Part shown: positions 1 to 11,542 of the stretch, in pieces | Layout of the letters: the number at the start of each line of letters is the position of its first letter | Numbering within the stretch: position 1 is the stretch's first letter | DNA from: an uncultured virus (IMG/VR IMGVR_UViG_2831345111_000005) | Taxonomy: Duplodnaviria; Heunggongvirae; Uroviricota; Caudoviricetes | Virus record (IMG/VR): IMGVR_UViG_2831345111_000005 | Reading direction: 5' to 3' (one strand) | DNA: 20,000 nucleotides | Position numbers and translations under genes: made by a program | The notes under the pieces: model-generated | Seen by the model: only the letters and a program-made list of their open reading frames with translations | Told to the model about the DNA's origin: nothing | Databases searched by the model: none

Positions 1-242
1 GCTTCGAGGCGCCAGCTTTTGATGATGCCGCAGTCATCAAGGAAGTGCAGCCGTTGGGGTCGAGCGGCCTGCACTGGAAGATTCGGGCAAAAATCGGGGA
101 TAACGACGTGCCGGAAACGGTGGTCATGTTCAACCAGCCGGAGCCGACCGTTGGCCAGGAAGTCCAGATGTATCTGGCTCCCAGCCTGAATACTTGGAAG
201 GGAAAGACCTCCCTGCAGTGGCAGGGAAGGGTGTTGAACTAG
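1..242 (+). CDS. recJ: ssDNA exonuclease RecJ-like protein, C-terminal OB-fold part (5' truncated by window)
   Basis: Frame open from base 3: FEAPAF...PLGSSGLHWKIR...VVMFN...YLAPSLNTWKGKTSLQW resembles the RecJ C-terminus (F-x-x-P-x-F...G-x-H-L-K...N-x-W-x-G-x-x-S-L-Q); stop TAG at 240-242. Confidence 0.7.
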   Translation, partial: FEAPAFDDAAVIKEVQPLGSSGLHWKIRAKIGDNDVPETVVMFNQPEPTVGQEVQMYLAPSLNTWKGKTSLQWQGRVLN

Positions 243-817
243 GCGGCGTCCACCAGCACGGTCTTTTTGAGTTCCGCGACCTGGATGGCTGTGCCAGCGC
301 CGAATACGGCATCAATCTGCTCAGCATAGCGCAAAATCAACGCTTTCGTTAAACGCGTATCCTTGGTTCCTGGCTCACGATGATTATTGGTGAGGTCCCG
401 ATGATTGCGGTGGCGTTGTTCCGGATTTTCACCATGTACTTCCAGTTCGCCAGGAGTGTACACGCTGGGCTCTAACTGGCTCGCCCAAAACTTGCTGCCA
501 TATCGCCAAATCAAACGAAGTGCACCTTTTCGCGCAAGGACGATACCCTCAGCGCTAAAATCGGTTCCATTTTCATACCTTGGCGCAACTTCAAATAACC
601 CGGAGTTCTTCCGTCCGCCGTTCTTTCGCTTATCGCGGGCGGTTTCGGCTTTATTATGCTCGATGGCGAGTATCTCCTCGCGCTCCCTCAAATTCGAAAG
701 AAACTTATGAATTTCAGGCACCGCCGAATCATCCCCCTCGTTCACACGCGTAAGCAAGTCAACAGCAGTTTCAAATTTTGAGGAGCGTTCGAGGATGGAG
801 AGATGTTTGAATGCCAT
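239..817 (-). CDS. hypothetical protein (~192 aa)
   Basis: Long ORF; start moved from 877 to ATG 817 (MAFKHL) because 849-877 is occupied by a promoter-like sequence; no family recognised. Confidence 0.7.
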   Translation of the reverse strand: MAFKHLSILERSSKFETAVDLLTRVNEGDDSAVPEIHKFLSNLREREEILAIEHNKAETARDKRKNGGRKNSGLFEVAPRYENGTDFSAEGIVLARKGALRLIWRYGSKFWASQLEPSVYTPGELEVHGENPEQRHRNHRDLTNNHREPGTKDTRLTKALILRYAEQIDAVFGAGTAIQVAELKKTVLVDAA

Positions 818-848
818 GATGGATTCCGACTGTAAGGAATACCTTCTG

Positions 849-877
849 AATATAGCATTATTTGCTATAATAGTCAA
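849..877 (-). promoter_or_regulatory. sigma70-type promoter with overlapping palindrome
   Basis: Minus strand TTGACT-17bp-TATATT; inverted repeat TATAGCA-N5-TGCTATA at 851-869 covers the spacer and -10. Confidence 0.6.
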
Positions 878-951
878 TCAGTTAATGTGCAACTTTGTTT
901 CCAGTTTCGAGTTTTGTGCGTTAATCTGTTTCCGCTCCCTATACTGGTACA

Positions 952-1206
952 TGGAAATATGGTTCCGTTTGTGTGAACCCGACGGGTAGGTAGAGTGCCC
1001 CTGTGGACGAAGCTTGAGCATTTGCTCGCTGTTGACGACGGTCGACATCCTCAAAAAGAAGTTTTACCGCAGTGACGCCTTTAACTATCCGCCAAAACAC
1101 GGACGTCCGTCAGCGACATTGAGCGTAAGCTCTGTTGTGACGATGAAAGGCCATTCTCGGTAACTTCTCTCTCCCACACCAGTTCTCTGAACTGGTGTTT
1201 GTTTTT
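952..1206 (+). ncRNA. candidate structured non-coding RNA, family not recognised
   Basis: No credible ORF; nested helices 959-964/1149-1154, 983-995/1079-1091, 1001-1006/1067-1072, 1030-1036/1041-1047, long hairpin 1104-1145 with GUAA tetraloop; TATACT at 940-945 upstream, intrinsic terminator downstream. Confidence 0.6.
1176..1206 (+). terminator. intrinsic terminator
   Basis: ACACCAGTTC-TCT-GAACTGGTGT perfect 10-bp stem followed by TTGTTTTT; the U-tract is only on the + strand. Confidence 0.75.
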
Positions 1207-1223
1207 ATTAGAGCCTTTGAGGC

Positions 1224-1787
1224 TTAAACCCTGGCTGAGCTCATTCGCCGGTCTTTATTGGCTTTTGTATACCGAGATTTATATTCATTCTTAGGGGTAC
1301 GCTTAGCTTCATAAGGTTGTCCGGCTCTGCGAGCCGCCAGATATGGCTCAAGCCCTTTGTGAAATGTGGCCCCTTGGCAAGATTTGCACAAAATCGAGCT
1401 GTGCTCGATTGCTTCCATCAACGACTCCCTAGCCATGCCGTTATGCAAAATGGCGGAAACACACGGCCCGTCAAAGTCACGATTCAAATGATAGGTTAGC
1501 TGATTAGCTGTTCCACATTTCTCACACTTAGCTGCCGCCAGACCTTCCTTCACAATTTTTTCTAAGGAAACCCGTCTTGCGGCTGCATTAATTGCTGACC
1601 GCTCGATGATTTTTTCTTTATTCGCTAAATAATGTTCTCGACTCACGATTGCTTGGCACGGCTTGCATCGAGACTGACGTTTGCCCGTTACCTTGTTCTT
1701 CAAATTGAAATCCGTAACAGGTTTTTCAACATGGCAATGACAACATTCCTTAACTTCAATGGCCTCGAGAATTTCCATACAGTTCAC
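1224..1787 (-). CDS. Zn-finger / HNH-endonuclease-like protein, degenerate HNH site
   Basis: Four CxxC pairs (CCHC, CKPC, CEKC, CKSC); N-terminal KECxxCxxEKPxxDF...CKPC finger and C-terminal CxxCG...L-x-Y-H...ILCxxC layout as in phage HNH proteins. Confidence 0.65.
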   Translation of the reverse strand: MNCMEILEAIEVKECCHCHVEKPVTDFNLKNKVTGKRQSRCKPCQAIVSREHYLANKEKIIERSAINAAARRVSLEKIVKEGLAAAKCEKCGTANQLTYHLNRDFDGPCVSAILHNGMARESLMEAIEHSSILCKSCQGATFHKGLEPYLAARRAGQPYEAKRTPKNEYKSRYTKANKDRRMSSARV

Positions 1788-1822
1788 TTAATTTCGTTTA
1801 GCAAGTAGGTAAGCTACCAAGT

Positions 1823-1846
1823 AAAACTGGCCGGATGGCCAGTTTT
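1823..1846. terminator. intrinsic terminator (bidirectional shape) downstream of nuc
   Basis: AAAACTGGCC-GGAT-GGCCAGTTTT inverted repeat. Confidence 0.7.
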
Positions 1847-1872
1847 AGAGTAACTAGTTGAAATTCTTAAAG

Positions 1873-2517
1873 CTAGTATTGTGTTTCAAATGGTGTTGAC
1901 TGGCTGTAGTTGCGGTTGAAGTGCTTGACGTAGGCATCAGCCAATTTTGGGTTGTTCCAGTTCACCAGCACATTCTCGGAGTTCTTGTGAGCGGCGGCGG
2001 CCGAATAGTTGAACGAGCCAAGTTCGACCGTATCCCGGTTCACGATGAGGACCTTATCATGGTGAATAGGATACACCTTGATGACGCGCACATCGGCGCC
2101 AGCGGTCTTCAACGCAGAGAGCGCGGCACGCGCCTTGCCGGAGCGGTCTTCAGAGATGTTGTTCTTGTAGTCAGCCACCAGCTTGATGGAAACGCCGTTA
2201 TGCGCCGCCTTCACCAGCGCCTCGGTCACTGGCGCCGAGGTGAAGCTGTAGGACAGCATCAAAATTTCGCCACCCTTTTTCTCGGACGCGGAGTTGATAA
2301 CCTTGATGACCAGATTTTCGCTGCCTTCGTCAGGGGAGAAGGCAACCTCTAGTGTGCCCGCCGCCGGCACGACAGTGCTGCCCTGGTTGGAAATTGCTTT
2401 ACTGACATCATGGAAGCCTTTGGTGACGTCTTTGAATGAGAATGCGTTGGCCACACCGCCAACCGCAACCATTGCCAGGGTTAACAATGCGGATACTGCA
2501 ACACGAGAGCGCGTCAT
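1873..2517 (-). CDS. nuc: secreted phospholipase D-family endonuclease (Nuc-like)
   Basis: Signal peptide ending ANA; VAFSP, YSFTS, HDKVLIVN...GSFNYS...NSEN motifs typical of plasmid Nuc. Confidence 0.9.
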   Translation of the reverse strand: MTRSRVAVSALLTLAMVAVGGVANAFSFKDVTKGFHDVSKAISNQGSTVVPAAGTLEVAFSPDEGSENLVIKVINSASEKKGGEILMLSYSFTSAPVTEALVKAAHNGVSIKLVADYKNNISEDRSGKARAALSALKTAGADVRVIKVYPIHHDKVLIVNRDTVELGSFNYSAAAAHKNSENVLVNWNNPKLADAYVKHFNRNYSQSTPFETQY

Positions 2518-2550
2518 TTCTTGCCTTTTGTTATCTAATATGGAACATGA

Positions 2551-2579
2551 AATATACTATATTAGGCACTTATTGTCAA
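2551..2579 (-). promoter_or_regulatory. sigma70-type promoter for nuc
   Basis: Minus strand TTGACA-17bp-TATATT. Confidence 0.7.
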
Positions 2580-2619
2580 CTTAGGCATTTGTTAATCAGC
2601 CAAGGCATCAGGAGAAATT

Positions 2620-2868
2620 ATGGCAGAACCTTGCAGAAAACGTGCGTGGAAAAATTCCCTTGCCCAAGGCCATCTTGAGGTTTGCCCGTGGGACTCGTCC
2701 GAAGCCGTCAGTTTTGAGTTGTATTATGCTGGCATGGAAAGTTCTAGCGCCACGCTCACCTTTACCTCCAGGCTACTGGCAGACCAGGTTTGCTACGCCC
2801 TAATGAAACAATTCGAGGCAGGCAAGCGTGCGGCTAAAGTGGAACTTAAGCATTGGCTCGACAGCTAA
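2620..2868 (+). CDS. hypothetical protein (82 aa)
   Basis: AGGAG RBS before ATG, terminator immediately after stop. Confidence 0.7.
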   Translation: MAEPCRKRAWKNSLAQGHLEVCPWDSSEAVSFELYYAGMESSSATLTFTSRLLADQVCYALMKQFEAGKRAAKVELKHWLDS

Positions 2869-2877
2869 TGCAGACTC

Positions 2878-2901
2878 AAAGCCCCGATATTCGGGGCTTT
2901 T
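2878..2901 (+). terminator. intrinsic terminator
   Basis: AAAGCCCCGA-TAT-TCGGGGCTTTT. Confidence 0.75.
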
Positions 2902-2914
2902 CGTTTGGACACAG

Positions 2915-2940
2915 AAAAGCCGCAAGAAAAATCTTGCGGC
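2915..2940 (-). terminator. intrinsic terminator ending the polA operon
   Basis: GCCGCAAGA-AAAA-TCTTGCGGC preceded by AAAA (U-tract on minus strand). Confidence 0.7.
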
Positions 2941-2950
2941 CTTGTGAGAG

Positions 2951-3148
2951 TTACATCAGGTTGTATTTCGACAAAAGGTGCTCAATCGCTTGATAGTGCT
3001 CCTGCATTGCATCTACCAGGTCGGCCCCAGAGATACTGGCTTCTGCATCACCAAACCCGAGTGATTCCAGGCTTGCGCGAATGTTCGTCAGAATGACGAT
3101 ACCCAGTTCCTTGTCATCATTAGTCACTTGAGACAGTTTGCTTGCCAT
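2951..3148 (-). CDS. hypothetical protein (65 aa)
   Basis: GGAGG RBS; operonic spacing with upstream gene. Confidence 0.75.
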   Translation of the reverse strand: MASKLSQVTNDDKELGIVILTNIRASLESLGFGDAEASISGADLVDAMQEHYQAIEHLLSKYNLM

Positions 3149-3159
3149 GATTCCTCCGC

Positions 3160-3894
3160 TTAGGGTTGAGTAAAGCTGTCACCGGACATAAATGCCATCC
3201 AGTTGCATGCTTTACCGTAGGACTTGAAGTTCGCGTGATTCAATAACAAACCATTCTGGTTTTTTACCCAAACCCCATGCGAGTAGCCTAGAGCCGCAAG
3301 AGAGACATACTTACCCTTGCTATCGGTATACCCATCTTCGTCGGAAATCGAACGAAGTTCCATCTCCGGCAAGTGGTACTGCGGGTGCCGATACACATCT
3401 TTACGGGTTGTGACGTCAACGATACGGACAATGCAGCTGGTCAGAAGTGCAGGTCCCCCATCCTCATCATCAGAAATCAGGAGAGGGCTCTTCATTGGCC
3501 CCATGCTGCGACCAATTCTTCCCATCATATCGTGTTCGTCCATCCAGTCACGGCCTGTGGATTCGTCGCCCAGGAAAATCCGGACACGATTTCCACTTTT
3601 ACGATAGGCCTCGAGCACCTTGCGTACCTGTTCAGGCGTGCGCGCATCAAACCAAGTTTCCTTGTCTTCGATGGCGCGATACTCCTGAAGCAGCGAAAGG
3701 TAGTCCTCGTACTGCTTGAGGGTACCGATTTCAGCGCTTTGCGGCGTTACTGAAATCGCGCGGCCGGCTTTTGCAATCCGGCTCGCAAACTCAGTGATGT
3801 AGTTATAGACTACATCAAACCCCAGGCAGCTATATCCACCGCCACTCGGGATTACAAACAAACGTTGGTCTTGATTCAGGCTGACAGCAGTCAT
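3160..3894 (-). CDS. hypothetical protein (244 aa)
   Basis: GAGG RBS, long ORF in operon; no family recognised. Confidence 0.8.
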   Translation of the reverse strand: MTAVSLNQDQRLFVIPSGGGYSCLGFDVVYNYITEFASRIAKAGRAISVTPQSAEIGTLKQYEDYLSLLQEYRAIEDKETWFDARTPEQVRKVLEAYRKSGNRVRIFLGDESTGRDWMDEHDMMGRIGRSMGPMKSPLLISDDEDGGPALLTSCIVRIVDVTTRKDVYRHPQYHLPEMELRSISDEDGYTDSKGKYVSLAALGYSHGVWVKNQNGLLLNHANFKSYGKACNWMAFMSGDSFTQP

Positions 3895-3943
3895 GATATT
3901 TCCTCATTTTGGTTAGTAACAATGAGGTATAGCGCTAAGTCGG

Positions 3944-4288
3944 CTAGAGCCGGATGATGCCCGTTTCGATGGAATCGATGGATTTCTCCAGGAAGGTCAC
4001 CGAACACTTCTTGTCGTCGCCGGCAATCTCCTGAGCCATGCCCAAGGTGCTGGCAAATGTGCGCTGCAAGGTGCTGTGACGCGCCTGGACTAGCGCCGTG
4101 GTGACAGCGCCACACTCACATTTCTTTGCCCAGGCCGCGCCGGCCGGGGTGTGCTTGATGAGCGTGAATCCATTCAGGACTTCGCCGCAGGTCTTGCACT
4201 TGATGTTAATCGGGGATTCGTCTTCCTGGATGGCTTGTGCCTGCGCAATGCGTTCTGCGAGGGAACCACGTTTTCTTGCTTGACCCAT
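3944..4288 (-). CDS. small Zn-ribbon-like hypothetical protein (114 aa)
   Basis: Start reassigned to ATG 4288 (MGQARKRG) with AAGGA RBS; CKTC...CEC cysteine pairs. Confidence 0.7.
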   Translation of the reverse strand: MGQARKRGSLAERIAQAQAIQEDESPINIKCKTCGEVLNGFTLIKHTPAGAAWAKKCECGAVTTALVQARHSTLQRTFASTLGMAQEIAGDDKKCSVTFLEKSIDSIETGIIRL

Positions 4289-4323
4289 TTTGTTTCCTTG
4301 ATGGTTGGCCCAGAGGGCTGAGG

Positions 4324-4710
4324 TTAGAGGTACCGCTGACTTCCGACACGTCCCGGCTTTAATGCCACAACGATGCCGCGGCAAGAGGGGGTGTTTCGAC
4401 GCTTGGGGTCGTTAGGGTTACTCATGGCATATCGGCGTTCTGCCGATAGCATGGTTGACCGGATGTTTCTGGCTACAACAGGGTTGCTGCGGTCGTGAAT
4501 ACACCAGTGCGGCACGGTTTTTCCGTAGATGCCTGAGGACTTGAGTATTTCTGCTGCCACCTCGTAAGGGGAGCCGCCGTCACCGAGGTCCGAGTCAAAT
4601 GAAATTTGGCGGACGTGCTCAGTTGCTAGTAGCTTAATGGCCTCCTTTGCGGAGCGGCACACTGTGGCGCCGACAGGAGCGGGTCGACTATCATCGAGGA
4701 ATAGGAACAT
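4324..4710 (-). CDS. cyclic-phosphate-processing receiver-like domain protein
   Basis: LFLDDSRPAP...CRSAKEAIKLL...ISFDSDLG...IH..NPV matches the LxLDDxRxxP...ISxDHDLG...HSxNP family pattern, with His replaced by Ser in DHDLG. Confidence 0.7.
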   Translation of the reverse strand: MFLFLDDSRPAPVGATVCRSAKEAIKLLATEHVRQISFDSDLGDGGSPYEVAAEILKSSGIYGKTVPHWCIHDRSNPVVARNIRSTMLSAERRYAMSNPNDPKRRNTPSCRGIVVALKPGRVGSQRYL

Positions 4711-5355
4711 TTACGGCTCCATCCAGAATGCGGGCAAGTGGTAGTTCAAGGAGGCGCCCATATACCCCGTTCGACCTATGGACACAAAGTTGAGTCTCTT
4801 GTAGTGCCTGCGCAATTTCGTCGATATCTTTTTGCGCTCTGCATCGGAAACTGGAGCGGCCTTCCCATCTTGAATTGGTGCTGCTTGCAGAAGCGCCAAT
4901 TCGCAGCCAAGCGCCTTGTTCTTAAGCAGGGTGTAAATTGCCTGCAAGCCGATGTCGCGTCCACGATAAGCCGGCTGCAGTTCAACGCGGTTAAGGTAGA
5001 GGATGCCACCAAATCCTGTGAGCAAGTCATCCCCGACCGCATCCATCAGCACCTGCTTCAGTTCAGTTTGCTCGTCATAAATTGTGCCAAACAGGTCCGC
5101 CAGAGTATCGCTGTGGGCATCCAGCGCATCCCCCAACCAGACACGGTTGTCATGCGCGAGAGCTGTATCAATCACAAAATAGTCAAGCACCCCTACGTCA
5201 ACAAAATCTTCAGTTTCATCGTCATAGATACAAATTTTGGCGAGGTAGTCAGTAACTATGTTTTCATCTGGCTCCCTGGCCTTAAATCGCGTCAGAGAGC
5301 TTTGGCTGATTTCCAGTACGAGGTTTTCTTCAGGGGGAACGCCTAAAAAGGCCAT
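4711..5355 (-). CDS. GNAT-fold protein
   Basis: ILYLNRVELQPAYRGRDIG (acetyl-CoA motif A-like) and KLRRHYKRLNF (motif B-like). Confidence 0.6.
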   Translation of the reverse strand: MAFLGVPPEENLVLEISQSSLTRFKAREPDENIVTDYLAKICIYDDETEDFVDVGVLDYFVIDTALAHDNRVWLGDALDAHSDTLADLFGTIYDEQTELKQVLMDAVGDDLLTGFGGILYLNRVELQPAYRGRDIGLQAIYTLLKNKALGCELALLQAAPIQDGKAAPVSDAERKKISTKLRRHYKRLNFVSIGRTGYMGASLNYHLPAFWMEP

Positions 5356-8387: not shown

Positions 8388-9506
8388 ATGAGTACGAAAA
8401 CCTATAAGAAGCGGGTCGAGGCCGACAAGGTCCGCGACCAGGCGCACGGCAAATGGCTGGATATCCTGCCGTCGCTGGTGCCGGGATACTTCAATAATGC
8501 GTTACAGAAGATTGGAACGCACGTGACGTGTCCTTTTCATGGGGGTAAGGAAGATTTTCGATTCATTAAGCAAGCCAAGCCAGGTAAGGGAAATACGCGT
8601 GAAGTAGGGGTCGCAATGTGCTCCTGCGGGGTCTATCCTGATGGGTTCGCTGTGTTGATGAAGGCCACTGGCTGGACATTCAATGAAACCCTGATTCGGG
8701 TGGATGAGTGGCTCAACGGGTCCTCCTACCAGGAAACGGTAACGCCAGCTCCTATCAAGGTGTATTCGGATGAAGACGACGAAGAACAGAACAAAAAGAT
8801 TCTGGCCAATCTTCTCAATTTATGGGAAGCGGGCAAGCCGTTGGACATCAAGCAAGTGCCTTATTACCTGGGCCGGGGATTGCATGCTCGCGTGTTGGTG
8901 GATATGCAGGATGAGCGTTTTATTGCGAGTCTGGGCTATTACGAATACGTGAAAAAGAATCCGGCTGACCCAAATAGTGAGGAGATACTGGTTAAAACTG
9001 GTAGCTACCCCGCAATTCTGGCTATGATGCGAGATGCTCAAGGCAACCCGGTGGCGGTTCATCGCACCTGGTTATCCAAGGATAAGAAAGAGAAGGCTCC
9101 GGTCCGCAAGGCCAAGAAGCTCTCCCGCACGATAGGCGCGGCAGGTGCAGCAATGCGCTTGTACGACGCTACCGGCGCAGACACACTTGGATTGGCTGAA
9201 GGCAAGGAAACTGCGCATTCGGTTCGTCAGCTGGCGATGGGGCGGTATTGGCCTGAGCTGGGGAAAATTCCAGTATGGGCAACCTACTCTGAGCGCAACA
9301 TTCGTAACTTTGTGATTCCAGATTCAATGTTGGGTACCCTGCGTAAAATCGTTATCTTCGCGGATAACGACCCAAACGGTACCGGGTTTTCGGCTGCTGC
9401 TGAATTCAAGGAACGTATGGCGCTTGAGCATCCTGAAATCGAAGTCGATATCAAGATGCCTGAGGTTGAAGGCATGGACTGGAACGACGTTCTGGTCAAT
9501 CTGTAA
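8388..9506 (+). CDS. Zn-ribbon + Toprim primase-like protein (P4 alpha N-terminus-like, no helicase domain)
   Basis: CPFHGGKEDFRF...CSCG..PDG zinc-binding domain; VAVHRTWL; Toprim AEGKETA, IFADND, DWNDVL; GGAGG RBS. Confidence 0.85.
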   Translation: MSTKTYKKRVEADKVRDQAHGKWLDILPSLVPGYFNNALQKIGTHVTCPFHGGKEDFRFIKQAKPGKGNTREVGVAMCSCGVYPDGFAVLMKATGWTFNETLIRVDEWLNGSSYQETVTPAPIKVYSDEDDEEQNKKILANLLNLWEAGKPLDIKQVPYYLGRGLHARVLVDMQDERFIASLGYYEYVKKNPADPNSEEILVKTGSYPAILAMMRDAQGNPVAVHRTWLSKDKKEKAPVRKAKKLSRTIGAAGAAMRLYDATGADTLGLAEGKETAHSVRQLAMGRYWPELGKIPVWATYSERNIRNFVIPDSMLGTLRKIVIFADNDPNGTGFSAAAEFKERMALEHPEIEVDIKMPEVEGMDWNDVLVNL

Positions 9507-9514
9507 TACTCACT

Positions 9515-9545
9515 AGCTCCAGCCATCCGGTTGGAGCTTTTTATT
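9515..9545 (+). terminator. intrinsic terminator after primase
   Basis: AGCTCCAGCC-ATCC-GGTTGGAGCT followed by T-tract. Confidence 0.75.
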
Positions 9546-9557
9546 GGTCTACAAAAC

Positions 9558-9587
9558 AAAAAAGCCGAGGAATAATCCCCGGCTTTT
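9558..9587 (-). terminator. intrinsic terminator after traN-like gene
   Basis: Minus strand AAAAGCCGGGGA-TTAT-TCCTCGGCTTTTTT. Confidence 0.7.
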
Positions 9588-9604
9588 ATTTTTTCAGAAA
9601 TTTA

Positions 9605-11542
9605 CTACTTAGCAGCTTCGTATGGAGCGCAAGCGTCATTGACGGTGTAGTTGCACGCCATCGTCCAGGCAGAGACTTGGAAGTACGCCCACATTTCACC
9701 GCCGCCACCCACACCAGTATCGATACGCAGGTAGTTCCGGCCATTCACGAGATAAGGCACGAAGTTGATGTTGGTAGAGGCACGCCAGCTCACGTTACGC
9801 TCCCAGTAAGACTGCCATGAGGTGACTGGGCTGCAGGTAAGGCCGCTCATTTGCCAGGAACACACATTTTGAGTCATCCACTGGCCCCAGGTGTCATAGG
9901 TCGGGTTGTAGGAGCCGCCTCCGTAATCCGCCCACAACCAATGACCATTAATGGACACCGCCATCAGGTCATCGTACCCAACGTAATACATCAGGAATTG
10001 CTTTACCGTCGCCACATCCTGGATGTCAATCGTAAACTCACGATGGTAGTACCCGGTGCTCCAATAGTTGTCACCGATAGCCCCCACTCTGAATTGGACC
10101 GTATAGGGGTCTGGCTGACCAATCACAGAAATACTAGTGTCGCCAGAAGTAACGTTTAGGTCCAGACCACCCTGATTAATGATGGCTTTCTGCTGACACA
10201 ACTGCGGCACGGCCGTTGTCGCGCAAGAATAGGTTGCGGTCGTACGCTGCTCAGTACAGATTTCCGTCGGCTTGGTGCGCGCGGACGTAATGTCATTCAG
10301 CGTGTAGTCCGTCTTGGTGGTGCAATTACGCATCGACAGTGGGACGTCCGAGCTGCAAGTCTGCGTCCAGGTGTTGGTGTTAACCACCTTCTGCACGCAA
10401 ACCTCTGTCGTGCCGCAATCTTGGCCTTCTGCAGCGACCTGGGCGGTCTTGGCCAACGGATGGATGCCGCTCTCATTGCTGTATGTCTGGTCACACACCG
10501 TAATCTTGCCGTCGGTCGCAATGCCGTGGCCAATTTGCTGCAAACATTCGCTGCCGTTCGCACCATACTTGGCTTGATACTGAGGAATCAGCGGATTGGC
10601 TTGCAGCTTCTGAATTGAAGCCCACTGGTTCGTGTGGTCTTGCGGATTCGGCACTGAACCGGCACCAGCGGTCATCATGTCCTTCGTGACCGTGGTCTTG
10701 TGGCGATAGGCAATACGGAAGCCGACCGCAGTCTTGTGCGTGTTGTTGTTGACGAAGCTCTGAACAATCTTAAGCGCCGTCATATTGTCCGAATCCGCCT
10801 TGAAATCAGGCGTAATGCCGCCAGACAGCGAGGGGTAGAACACCATTGCCAGGCCGTTACGTGCTTTTTGGTCCGCCGTCGCATTGCTTGGCATGCTGGC
10901 TTGCCAGCTCACCGTGGTTTCCGTGCTCCAGCCGTTCAAGCTGTTTTCAGGTTCCGAATCACACGCTGCAACACGGCAGACCTTGCCTGCGGGCGGCTTG
11001 TAGTTCGAGGCCGTGGGGTCGCTTGAACAATCAACTGCGTTATCCGGCTGGCTTACCGGCAGGCCGCGGGCAGGGGCCGTGCAAACCTTGAAGGTGATTT
11101 GCGCGTCACCGGTATCCGACACCTGACAATTTGAGACCTTGACCGCTACGCCGGCGATTACCTGGCTACGCGTGTTGCCGCAGGCCACGGCCAGGATACC
11201 CGTCTGCGCCGAGTAGCTGGAGGAGTTACCATCCTTATCGAGGAAGTTGAAGCTCTGAGTGCCCGCGGCCGTCTGGGCTTGAACTTGCAGCCCGTTGTAG
11301 TCCGGCATATCGTTGGCGCCGAACGCGCTGTGGCAGTTCTTGCCATTGGCGTCGCACTCCTCCGCACCCTTACTCATGAAGGATGTGATAGCGCCTACGG
11401 CCTGAGCCTTAGCCACCGCTTGATTGGCGTTCAACGTCGGGTTGGAAATCACCCCGTTGGACACTGGCGGACGGTCGGCAAGGGCTTGTGCTGAAAGCCC
11501 CATCAACGCCAAAGCAACAATTGAAAATCCGAACTTCATCAC
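9605..11542 (-). CDS. traN: TraN-like Cys-rich secreted mating-pair stabilisation protein (N-terminal and tip portion only)
   Basis: Signal peptide; about 21 Cys; T-rich C-x-n-C beta stalk segments; YDDLMAVSINGHWLW resembles TraN tip-domain motif; ends CNYTVNDAC. Confidence 0.6.
   Translation of the reverse strand: MMKFGFSIVALALMGLSAQALADRPPVSNGVISNPTLNANQAVAKAQAVGAITSFMSKGAEECDANGKNCHSAFGANDMPDYNGLQVQAQTAAGTQSFNFLDKDGNSSSYSAQTGILAVACGNTRSQVIAGVAVKVSNCQVSDTGDAQITFKVCTAPARGLPVSQPDNAVDCSSDPTASNYKPPAGKVCRVAACDSEPENSLNGWSTETTVSWQASMPSNATADQKARNGLAMVFYPSLSGGITPDFKADSDNMTALKIVQSFVNNNTHKTAVGFRIAYRHKTTVTKDMMTAGAGSVPNPQDHTNQWASIQKLQANPLIPQYQAKYGANGSECLQQIGHGIATDGKITVCDQTYSNESGIHPLAKTAQVAAEGQDCGTTEVCVQKVVNTNTWTQTCSSDVPLSMRNCTTKTDYTLNDITSARTKPTEICTEQRTTATYSCATTAVPQLCQQKAIINQGGLDLNVTSGDTSISVIGQPDPYTVQFRVGAIGDNYWSTGYYHREFTIDIQDVATVKQFLMYYVGYDDLMAVSINGHWLWADYGGGSYNPTYDTWGQWMTQNVCSWQMSGLTCSPVTSWQSYWERNVSWRASTNINFVPYLVNGRNYLRIDTGVGGGGEMWAYFQVSAWTMACNYTVNDACAPYEAAK

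Follow-up and report, generated by a model that had tools for sequence, protein, structure and literature searches.

A strand-specific folded RNA candidate in an intergenic gap of a giant conjugative element

The 20,000-nt stretch of DNA analysed here (the window) includes an intergenic gap (818-1223) that is flanked by two minus-strand genes, and the question it raises is what this gap encodes, given that it folds extensively on the plus strand. An earlier note had proposed an independently transcribed non-coding RNA (ncRNA) at 952-1206; the plus-strand-specific fold, the orphan terminator and the want of an Rfam family all stood up to analysis, whereas the TATACT element offered as its promoter proved weak. 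We favour, with moderate confidence, a separate plus-strand transcription unit for a stable, highly folded, unclassified ncRNA. The fold is strand- and RNA-specific by computation, terminator and promoter motifs are present, and together these motifs suggest that the unit is transcribed.

The gene to one side (239-817, minus strand) is divergent from the RNA unit, has its own terminator (229-208) and encodes a 192-aa protein with no assigned function; the exact protein sequence is recorded once, as a singleton cluster on one contig, with no match in Pfam, NCBIfam or PHROG and no relatives in PLSDB, genome_contigs or IMG/VR. To the other side, and convergent with the RNA unit, lies a minus-strand gene (1224-1787) for a 187-aa zinc-ribbon, HNH/endonuclease VII-like protein (PHROG matches to endonuclease VII at 8.5e-11 and HNH endonuclease at 5.2e-10), downstream of which a terminator scan of the window found no minus-strand terminator. 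Relatives of this protein (35% identity) occur in other contexts on four Variovorax megaplasmids; searches gave four Variovorax plasmid and three metagenome loci, none of them syntenic, and nothing in IMG/VR. The route to the RNA via neighbouring proteins reached no syntenic locus: Nuc is found at 10 loci (35-67% identity) that have no neighbours in common with ours (0 of 10), and the PolA-like protein has ~38% identical relatives on four Variovorax plasmids and in one of 400 class genomes (a count that leaves the candidates of one further genome unscored), with none in IMG/VR.

As plus-strand RNA, positions 959-1154 form a Y-shaped structured core of 69 pairs (mean pair probability 0.94, -72.4 kcal/mol), for which the MFE and centroid structures are nearly identical. 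A closing stem (959-964/1149-1154) surrounds two branches, the first a long irregular arm (966-1105) leading to a three-way junction with hairpins 1016-1027 and 1030-1047, the second a side hairpin (1108-1142) capped by a GNRA loop (GUAA); the largest internal loop in the fold is 8 by 5 nt. When the seven helices listed in the earlier note were checked base by base and against the MFE, five were exact, one was in a shifted register and one was shorter. The closing stem is present (four Watson-Crick and two G-U pairs), 983-995/1079-1091 has the 12 of 13 pairs claimed for it (10 Watson-Crick, two G-U), 1001-1006/1067-1072 contributes six pairs (one G-U) and hairpin 1030-1047 contains 7 bp. Five Watson-Crick pairs are possible at 964-968/1099-1103, but the MFE instead takes 9 bp at 966-974/1097-1105, and position 964 cannot pair in this helix and in the closing stem at once. 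A UUGAG/CUCAA helix (1014-1018/1050-1054, again with five possible Watson-Crick pairs) survives as an alternative only; the MFE replaces it with 1009-1015/1059-1065 and a GAGC-AUUU-GCUC hairpin. The side hairpin keeps the GUAA loop previously described, but comprises 14 bp with two bulges rather than ~17. G-U pairs account for 11 of the 83 pairs in the plus-strand MFE of 952-1206, and the core fold depends on 10 G-U pairs.

Comparison with shuffled sequence on both strands, by which it had been suggested this fold be judged, revealed a clear advantage for the plus-strand core. Against 200 shuffles per strand and molecule, only the plus-strand RNA is exceptional (z -4.33, 0/200 shuffles as good); the minus-strand RNA gives -55.9 kcal/mol (z -0.63, 47/200), and the same core folded as DNA gives -26.4 kcal/mol for the plus strand (z -0.59, 55/200) and -24.2 kcal/mol for the minus strand (z +0.27, 127/200). 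This agrees with the earlier proposal of an RNA-level, strand-specific signal. The two strands have near-equal shuffle means (-54.9 and -53.3 kcal/mol), such that base composition is not the cause of the asymmetry; the arrangement of G-U pairs is. The asymmetry is visible in the core alone because the terminator hairpin, included when 952-1206 is folded, forms on either strand (RNA z -3.69 and -4.12, both strands alike).

These values bear directly on the notion that the structure belongs to a minus-strand mRNA, either as the 3' UTR of the HNH-like gene or as an intercistronic spacer before the 192-aa gene. Both neighbours do lie on the minus strand and the HNH-like gene is without a terminator of its own, but the minus-strand core is matched by almost a quarter of its shuffles and the 192-aa gene is served by a strong promoter of its own (877-849), and we regard this explanation as very improbable.

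The DNA folds speak in turn to a single-stranded DNA element on the transferred strand of a conjugative element, namely an Frpo-type promoter or a priming site (ssi). Two papers (PMC11541004, PMC9849209) describe conjugative islands as carrying Frpo-like ssDNA promoters. Our locus is alike in that a gene follows a folded, non-coding stretch, on a conjugative element with umuDC-like genes: the contig bears an F-type transfer system with the umuDC-like genes next to the window, and the flanking genes share one orientation. The distance from the RNA to the transfer genes and to a putative HD-domain relaxase is 20-50 kb. The core, however, is unstable as DNA (no better than its shuffles) and branched, relying on its G-U pairs, whereas the F plasmid Frpo2 control forms one long, stable hairpin of ~317 nt with z -6.52; with the terminator hairpin included, the DNA fold of 878-1223 reaches z -2.66 and -2.99. 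Nor is a -35/-10 pair rebuilt within the stem. A promoter scan of 700-1500 found no such pair inside 959-1154 on the plus strand, and by reading, the 3' arm of the core offers only TTTACC ... TATCCG; the Frpo2 control has TTGACG in its 5' arm near the base of the hairpin. Sequence similarity to the F leading region is likewise lacking (best E 0.66). The Frpo/ssi promoter was dropped as a candidate after the DNA folds and the Frpo2 control, and we hold a single-stranded DNA element to be highly improbable.

A more serious competitor is chance, that is, a non-functional spacer or decayed sequence in which a fortuitous hairpin and T-run happen to adjoin a foldable stretch. The local background is skewed in a way that favours it: over the whole window, scanned in unphased 196-nt steps (406 step-and-strand combinations, with 25 shuffles for the first 136 and 20 for the remainder), the mean z is -0.59 (sd 1.49), with 26/406 at z <= -3 and 7/406 at z <= -4.33, some of the latter in coding sequence. 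The core fold is therefore in the top 2% of the local background, but is not unique. Against chance, the two strands differ in z by as much as they do in the core at 1/203 scan positions. Places that fold more strongly are the paired terminators at 2745-3040, 9409-9700 and 14603, and a coding stretch at 3627-3822. This last (minus strand, within a 244-aa ORF at 3160-3894 that has PHROG matches) exceeds every other 196-nt stretch of the window in structure, at z -7.41 with 25 shuffles (z -3.72 for the longer 3560-3900), and comprises successive near-perfect hairpins on the sense strand.

The predicted 3' end of the unit is a strong intrinsic terminator (1176-1206, plus strand), in which a 10-bp stem (1176-1198, 3-nt loop, -13.6 kcal/mol) is followed by TTGTTTTTAT. 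Its plus-strand polarity had been remarked upon previously, as had the fact that no plus-strand gene requires it, and both points hold; no plus-strand protein gene precedes it. Terminator-like sites with at least nine pairs number five in the window, four of which (19256, 9587, 9515 and 229) sit just past the 3' end of a same-strand ORF, leaving 1176-1206 as the sole one without such an ORF. The scan found 16 terminator-like sites overall vs 20.9 +/- 4.4 in shuffles, and this want of enrichment counts in favour of a chance hairpin and T-run; yet the site equals in quality those that end real genes. A second terminator-like site (1247-1262) lies downstream of the unit.

At the other end, the motifs read from the sequence describe an overlapping divergent promoter region (842-878, both strands). 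The 192-aa gene is preceded on the minus strand by TTGACT (877-872), a 17-nt spacer and TGcTATATT (857-849), giving 10/12 matches plus the TG. On the plus strand, an extended -10 element, TGcTATAAT (863-871), lies 88 nt upstream of the core and in the correct orientation, although its -35 is poor (TTCTGA, 844-849); no other TGNTATAAT occurs in the 20-kb window when both strands are counted (40 kb of strand sequence). Transcription would start near 878 on the plus strand and at about 842 on the minus strand, as judged from these motifs. The TATACT previously put forward as the RNA's own -10 box is indeed present at 940-945, but is weak, has no usable -35, and is one of five occurrences across both strands of the window; TGcTATAAT, 80 nt further upstream, appears a much better candidate for the plus-strand promoter. 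The two extended -10 elements stand back to back in an imperfect inverted repeat (849-871, AATATAGCA ... TGCTATAAT), an arrangement that may constitute a symmetric divergent promoter.

A start at the extended -10 would give a unit of ~330 nt, compared with ~255 nt from TATACT, the predicted end in each case being the 1176-1206 terminator. The longer form would add a possible 5' part (878-958, plus strand) that includes TATACT, is T-rich (41% T) and contains two weak hairpins; on its own this is weakly structured (-17.2 kcal/mol, z -1.87, 11/200 shuffles as good). When 878-1206 is folded with this extension, the MFE departs from the core fold and the centroid retains it. Between core and terminator lies a pyrimidine-rich linker (1155-1175, plus strand; 43% C, 38% T), mostly unpaired in the centroid, for which 39 ten-mer complements exist in the genome with no clustering at gene starts by eye; none of these emerged as a candidate target. 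Judged by motifs and predicted ends, the unit has the generic layout of an sRNA gene, a promoter motif and a terminator with no supported ORF between them.

Two small plus-strand frames do fall inside the predicted unit, however, and both stop upstream of the terminator: a 34-aa frame (885-989, ATG start, aromatic and hydrophobic, inside a longer 64-aa frame) and a 49-aa frame (1014-1163, TTG start). The fold could then be that of a small-protein mRNA, for instance one organised like those of type I toxins, which are highly folded, with pairing between their 5' and 3' regions. Neither frame has a convincing ribosome-binding site (anti-SD duplex energies of +0.9 kcal/mol for the 34-aa and -3.0 kcal/mol for the 49-aa frame), and the 34-aa frame would begin ~7 nt after the predicted transcript start. 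Its best 19-residue hydropathy (1.31) is low for a membrane helix, and its Phe, Leu and Cys codons are those that T-rich DNA alone would yield. The 49-aa frame lacks hydrophobic character; it and the 64-aa frame have no matches in NCBIfam or the PHROGs and their exact sequences are absent from protein records, and the single-base variant described below (G1113A) would alter residue 34 of the 49-aa frame. A hok/sok-like toxin mRNA was rejected on the hydropathy of both frames and the lack of an SD for the 34-aa frame, and we consider a small-protein gene of any kind improbable.

Returning to the unit as a non-coding RNA, we asked whether it belongs to a known family. The earlier note could not match it to tRNA, tmRNA, RNase P, SRP or intron motifs, and this was borne out: Rfam 15 gave no matches over the whole window at the gathering threshold, and ARAGORN finds neither a tRNA nor a tmRNA in the window. 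With the threshold relaxed to E <= 10 over 800-1350, the one match is to an Enterococcus sRNA, EF3314_EF3315 (17.3 bits vs a gathering score of 100), and rests on terminator hairpins. By blastn, no homologues of the RNA were found in PLSDB or in phage records; sensitive blastn and a covariance model built from the predicted fold (R1) each return only the RNA itself in its own genome. BLAST of 60 relatives gave none, R1 gave none in 150 genomes of the order or 150 of the family, and an exact 24-mer of the RNA had no occurrence in IMG/VR. Among five chosen records, R1 produced one 67-nt partial match (19.7 bits, E 0.02) on a Variovorax plasmid, which we took as chance. A literature search for comparable megaplasmid ncRNAs found nothing relevant.

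That these homologue searches showed no conservation counts in favour of chance, but a near-identical copy does exist elsewhere. None of the sequencing runs recorded as RNA holds the stretch; the sole run that does contains 12% of its words and is of uncertain library type. A 229-nt public contig from that run repeats 990-1186 with one change, G1113A, which falls at a bulged, unpaired base of the GUAA hairpin, and the run leaves the rest of window positions 1-5000 uncovered. This sequence match establishes that the core is found again, nearly unaltered, in a second data set, and does not demonstrate transcription. Chance must account for the coincidence of four features (strand-specific RNA stability, the sole TGNTATAAT, a 10-bp terminator and a near-identical copy), and we judge it an unlikely explanation, though one to be taken seriously. 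The contig departs from our sequence at 1186, in the loop of the terminator hairpin, and continues for 32 unlike letters (~60% A, 27% G); this purine-rich end could mean that the sequence sits elsewhere in a genome or that the assembly is chimeric, or, as speculation, that an RNA fragment had received a non-templated tail.

The arrangement of folded domain, linker and intrinsic terminator, in that order, is also the usual one in transcription-terminating leaders. By analogy with these and with terminating riboswitches, the core could be a sensor and the terminator an expression platform, gating transcription that would otherwise run antisense into the HNH-like gene. This antisense strand is all that lies downstream in the plus direction, such that the candidate differs from known leaders in having no downstream plus-strand gene; it also differs in belonging to no aptamer family (no Rfam riboswitch or leader at E <= 10) and in showing no convincing antiterminator alternative in prefix folds. 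The further terminator-like site at 1247-1262 counts against such gating as well, and we think a leader of this type quite improbable.

Comparison with other structured RNAs helps to place the candidate ncRNA. FinP, CopA and RNA I are plasmid-borne structured regulatory RNAs of roughly 65-110 nt, with their own promoter and intrinsic terminator. The candidate resembles them in residing on a conjugative element, in its promoter-like motif, stem-loops and terminator hairpin with U-tail, and in being antisense to a neighbour's possible read-through transcript; it is unlike them in the size of its core (196 nt), in overlapping no 5' UTR or ribosome-binding site of a neighbour, and in having no kissing-loop-sized loops, sequence relatives or Rfam match. 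A 6S-like polymerase decoy, which the earlier note had entertained alongside conjectural roles as ribozyme, RNP scaffold or replication-control RNA, fares poorly. The candidate is of comparable size and its two termini likewise pair into a closing stem, but 6S RNA is rod-shaped and opened by one large bubble at its centre, whereas the candidate branches as a Y, with a side hairpin and a three-way junction, and Rfam returns no 6S family match at E <= 10. GOLLD, found 69 kb away on the same contig, is likewise an unexplained structured RNA on mobile DNA; the candidate differs from GOLLD and ROOL in lacking an Rfam match, in being about one-quarter the size and in having no adjoining tRNA.

If the unit is a separate ncRNA gene, the gene layout suggests that the RNA would act first in cis, on its own neighbours, a mechanism that we put forward tentatively and consider rather unlikely. 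The plus-strand promoter and that of the divergent 192-aa gene lie in the same 36 bp, so firing of one should exclude the other, and the two would compete. Read-through from the HNH-like gene, which has no terminator of its own, would be antisense to the RNA along its full length and run into it head-on. The core, large and closed, might confer stability or bind some protein; with its GNRA cap it is more elaborate than plain antisense needs, which hints at a protein or ligand partner. A bolder and improbable reading would make the core the first example seen of a tertiary-folded RNA class not described before, serving as ligand sensor, ribozyme or protein scaffold on giant elements rich in tRNA, tmRNA and GOLLD genes, and working alongside their RNA-centred gene set and not as a simple antisense regulator.

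The candidate is at present a single-sequence prediction. Were it real, it would be an unclassified, unusually large and well-ordered RNA on a 225-kb conjugative element, and its clear predicted ends would provide a handle on what such elements do with ncRNA; were it merely a local regulator of two orphan genes, it would be ordinary. Of the RNA candidate and the element around it, the element is arguably the more remarkable. The window lies on contig C7 (225,409 bp, G+C 0.541 vs 0.56-0.57 in large contigs), which by its gene content is a giant accessory conjugative element, mixing plasmid hallmarks with phage-like gene sets. Replication and partition are represented by TrfA-like and ParM-like genes, and transfer by an F-type T4SS (TraL, E, K, B, V, C, F, H and N) with two coupling proteins, and an HD-domain protein of 791 aa is a possible MOBH relaxase. 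DNA and nucleotide metabolism is covered by GyrA/GyrB-like, ThyA, Tmk, dNMP kinase, dUTPase, RNase H, PolA-like and primase genes, together with RecD2-like, SbcCD-like and RecJ-like genes. No terminase or capsid was matched among the scanned ORFs of at least 150 aa.

The RNA-related content of C7 is extensive, with a near-complete tRNA set among it, and the element's biology seems to centre on RNA. It encodes two RNA ligase-like proteins, a CCA-adding enzyme, PTH2, an RF-1-domain protein and a Nudix protein, and carries 39 of the genome's 92 tRNA genes, 38 of them in an array (L023:481-18854, C7 about 46.3-64.7 kb) and one a separate UUA tRNA (L022:8284-8359). A second, permuted tmRNA with tag ANDESYRLVA is present on the minus strand (L025:14787-15168, C7 about 20.6-21.0 kb), and the GOLLD RNA (RF02032) on the plus strand (L023:11527-11990, C7 57,354-57,817) scores 174.8 bits vs a gathering score of 150 (E 4e-47). 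An element this rich in RNA genes (39 tRNAs, second tmRNA, GOLLD) raises the prior for another, making an RNA gene in the gap more credible, as context and not as proof.

Several further features of the element deserve record. The tRNA array covers most amino acids, and the UUA anticodon of the separate tRNA would allow it to decode UAA, a stop. An odd tRNA is nested in GOLLD (ARAGORN reports its anticodon loop as 'tgat'), and the host's ordinary tmRNA (tag ANDETYALAA) is on a different contig, C13. Within the window, a second plus-strand island stands among the minus-strand genes at 2518-2960 and contains an 82-aa ORF (2620-2868) that is recorded as a protein; downstream of it are two strong hairpins, apparently terminators for convergent units. 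A cREC_REC 'cyclic-phosphate processing receiver' domain (2.9e-18) is present in the 128-aa product of a minus-strand gene at 4324-4710, a gene that is 3 kb away from the RNA and on the same element as the two RNA ligase-like genes.
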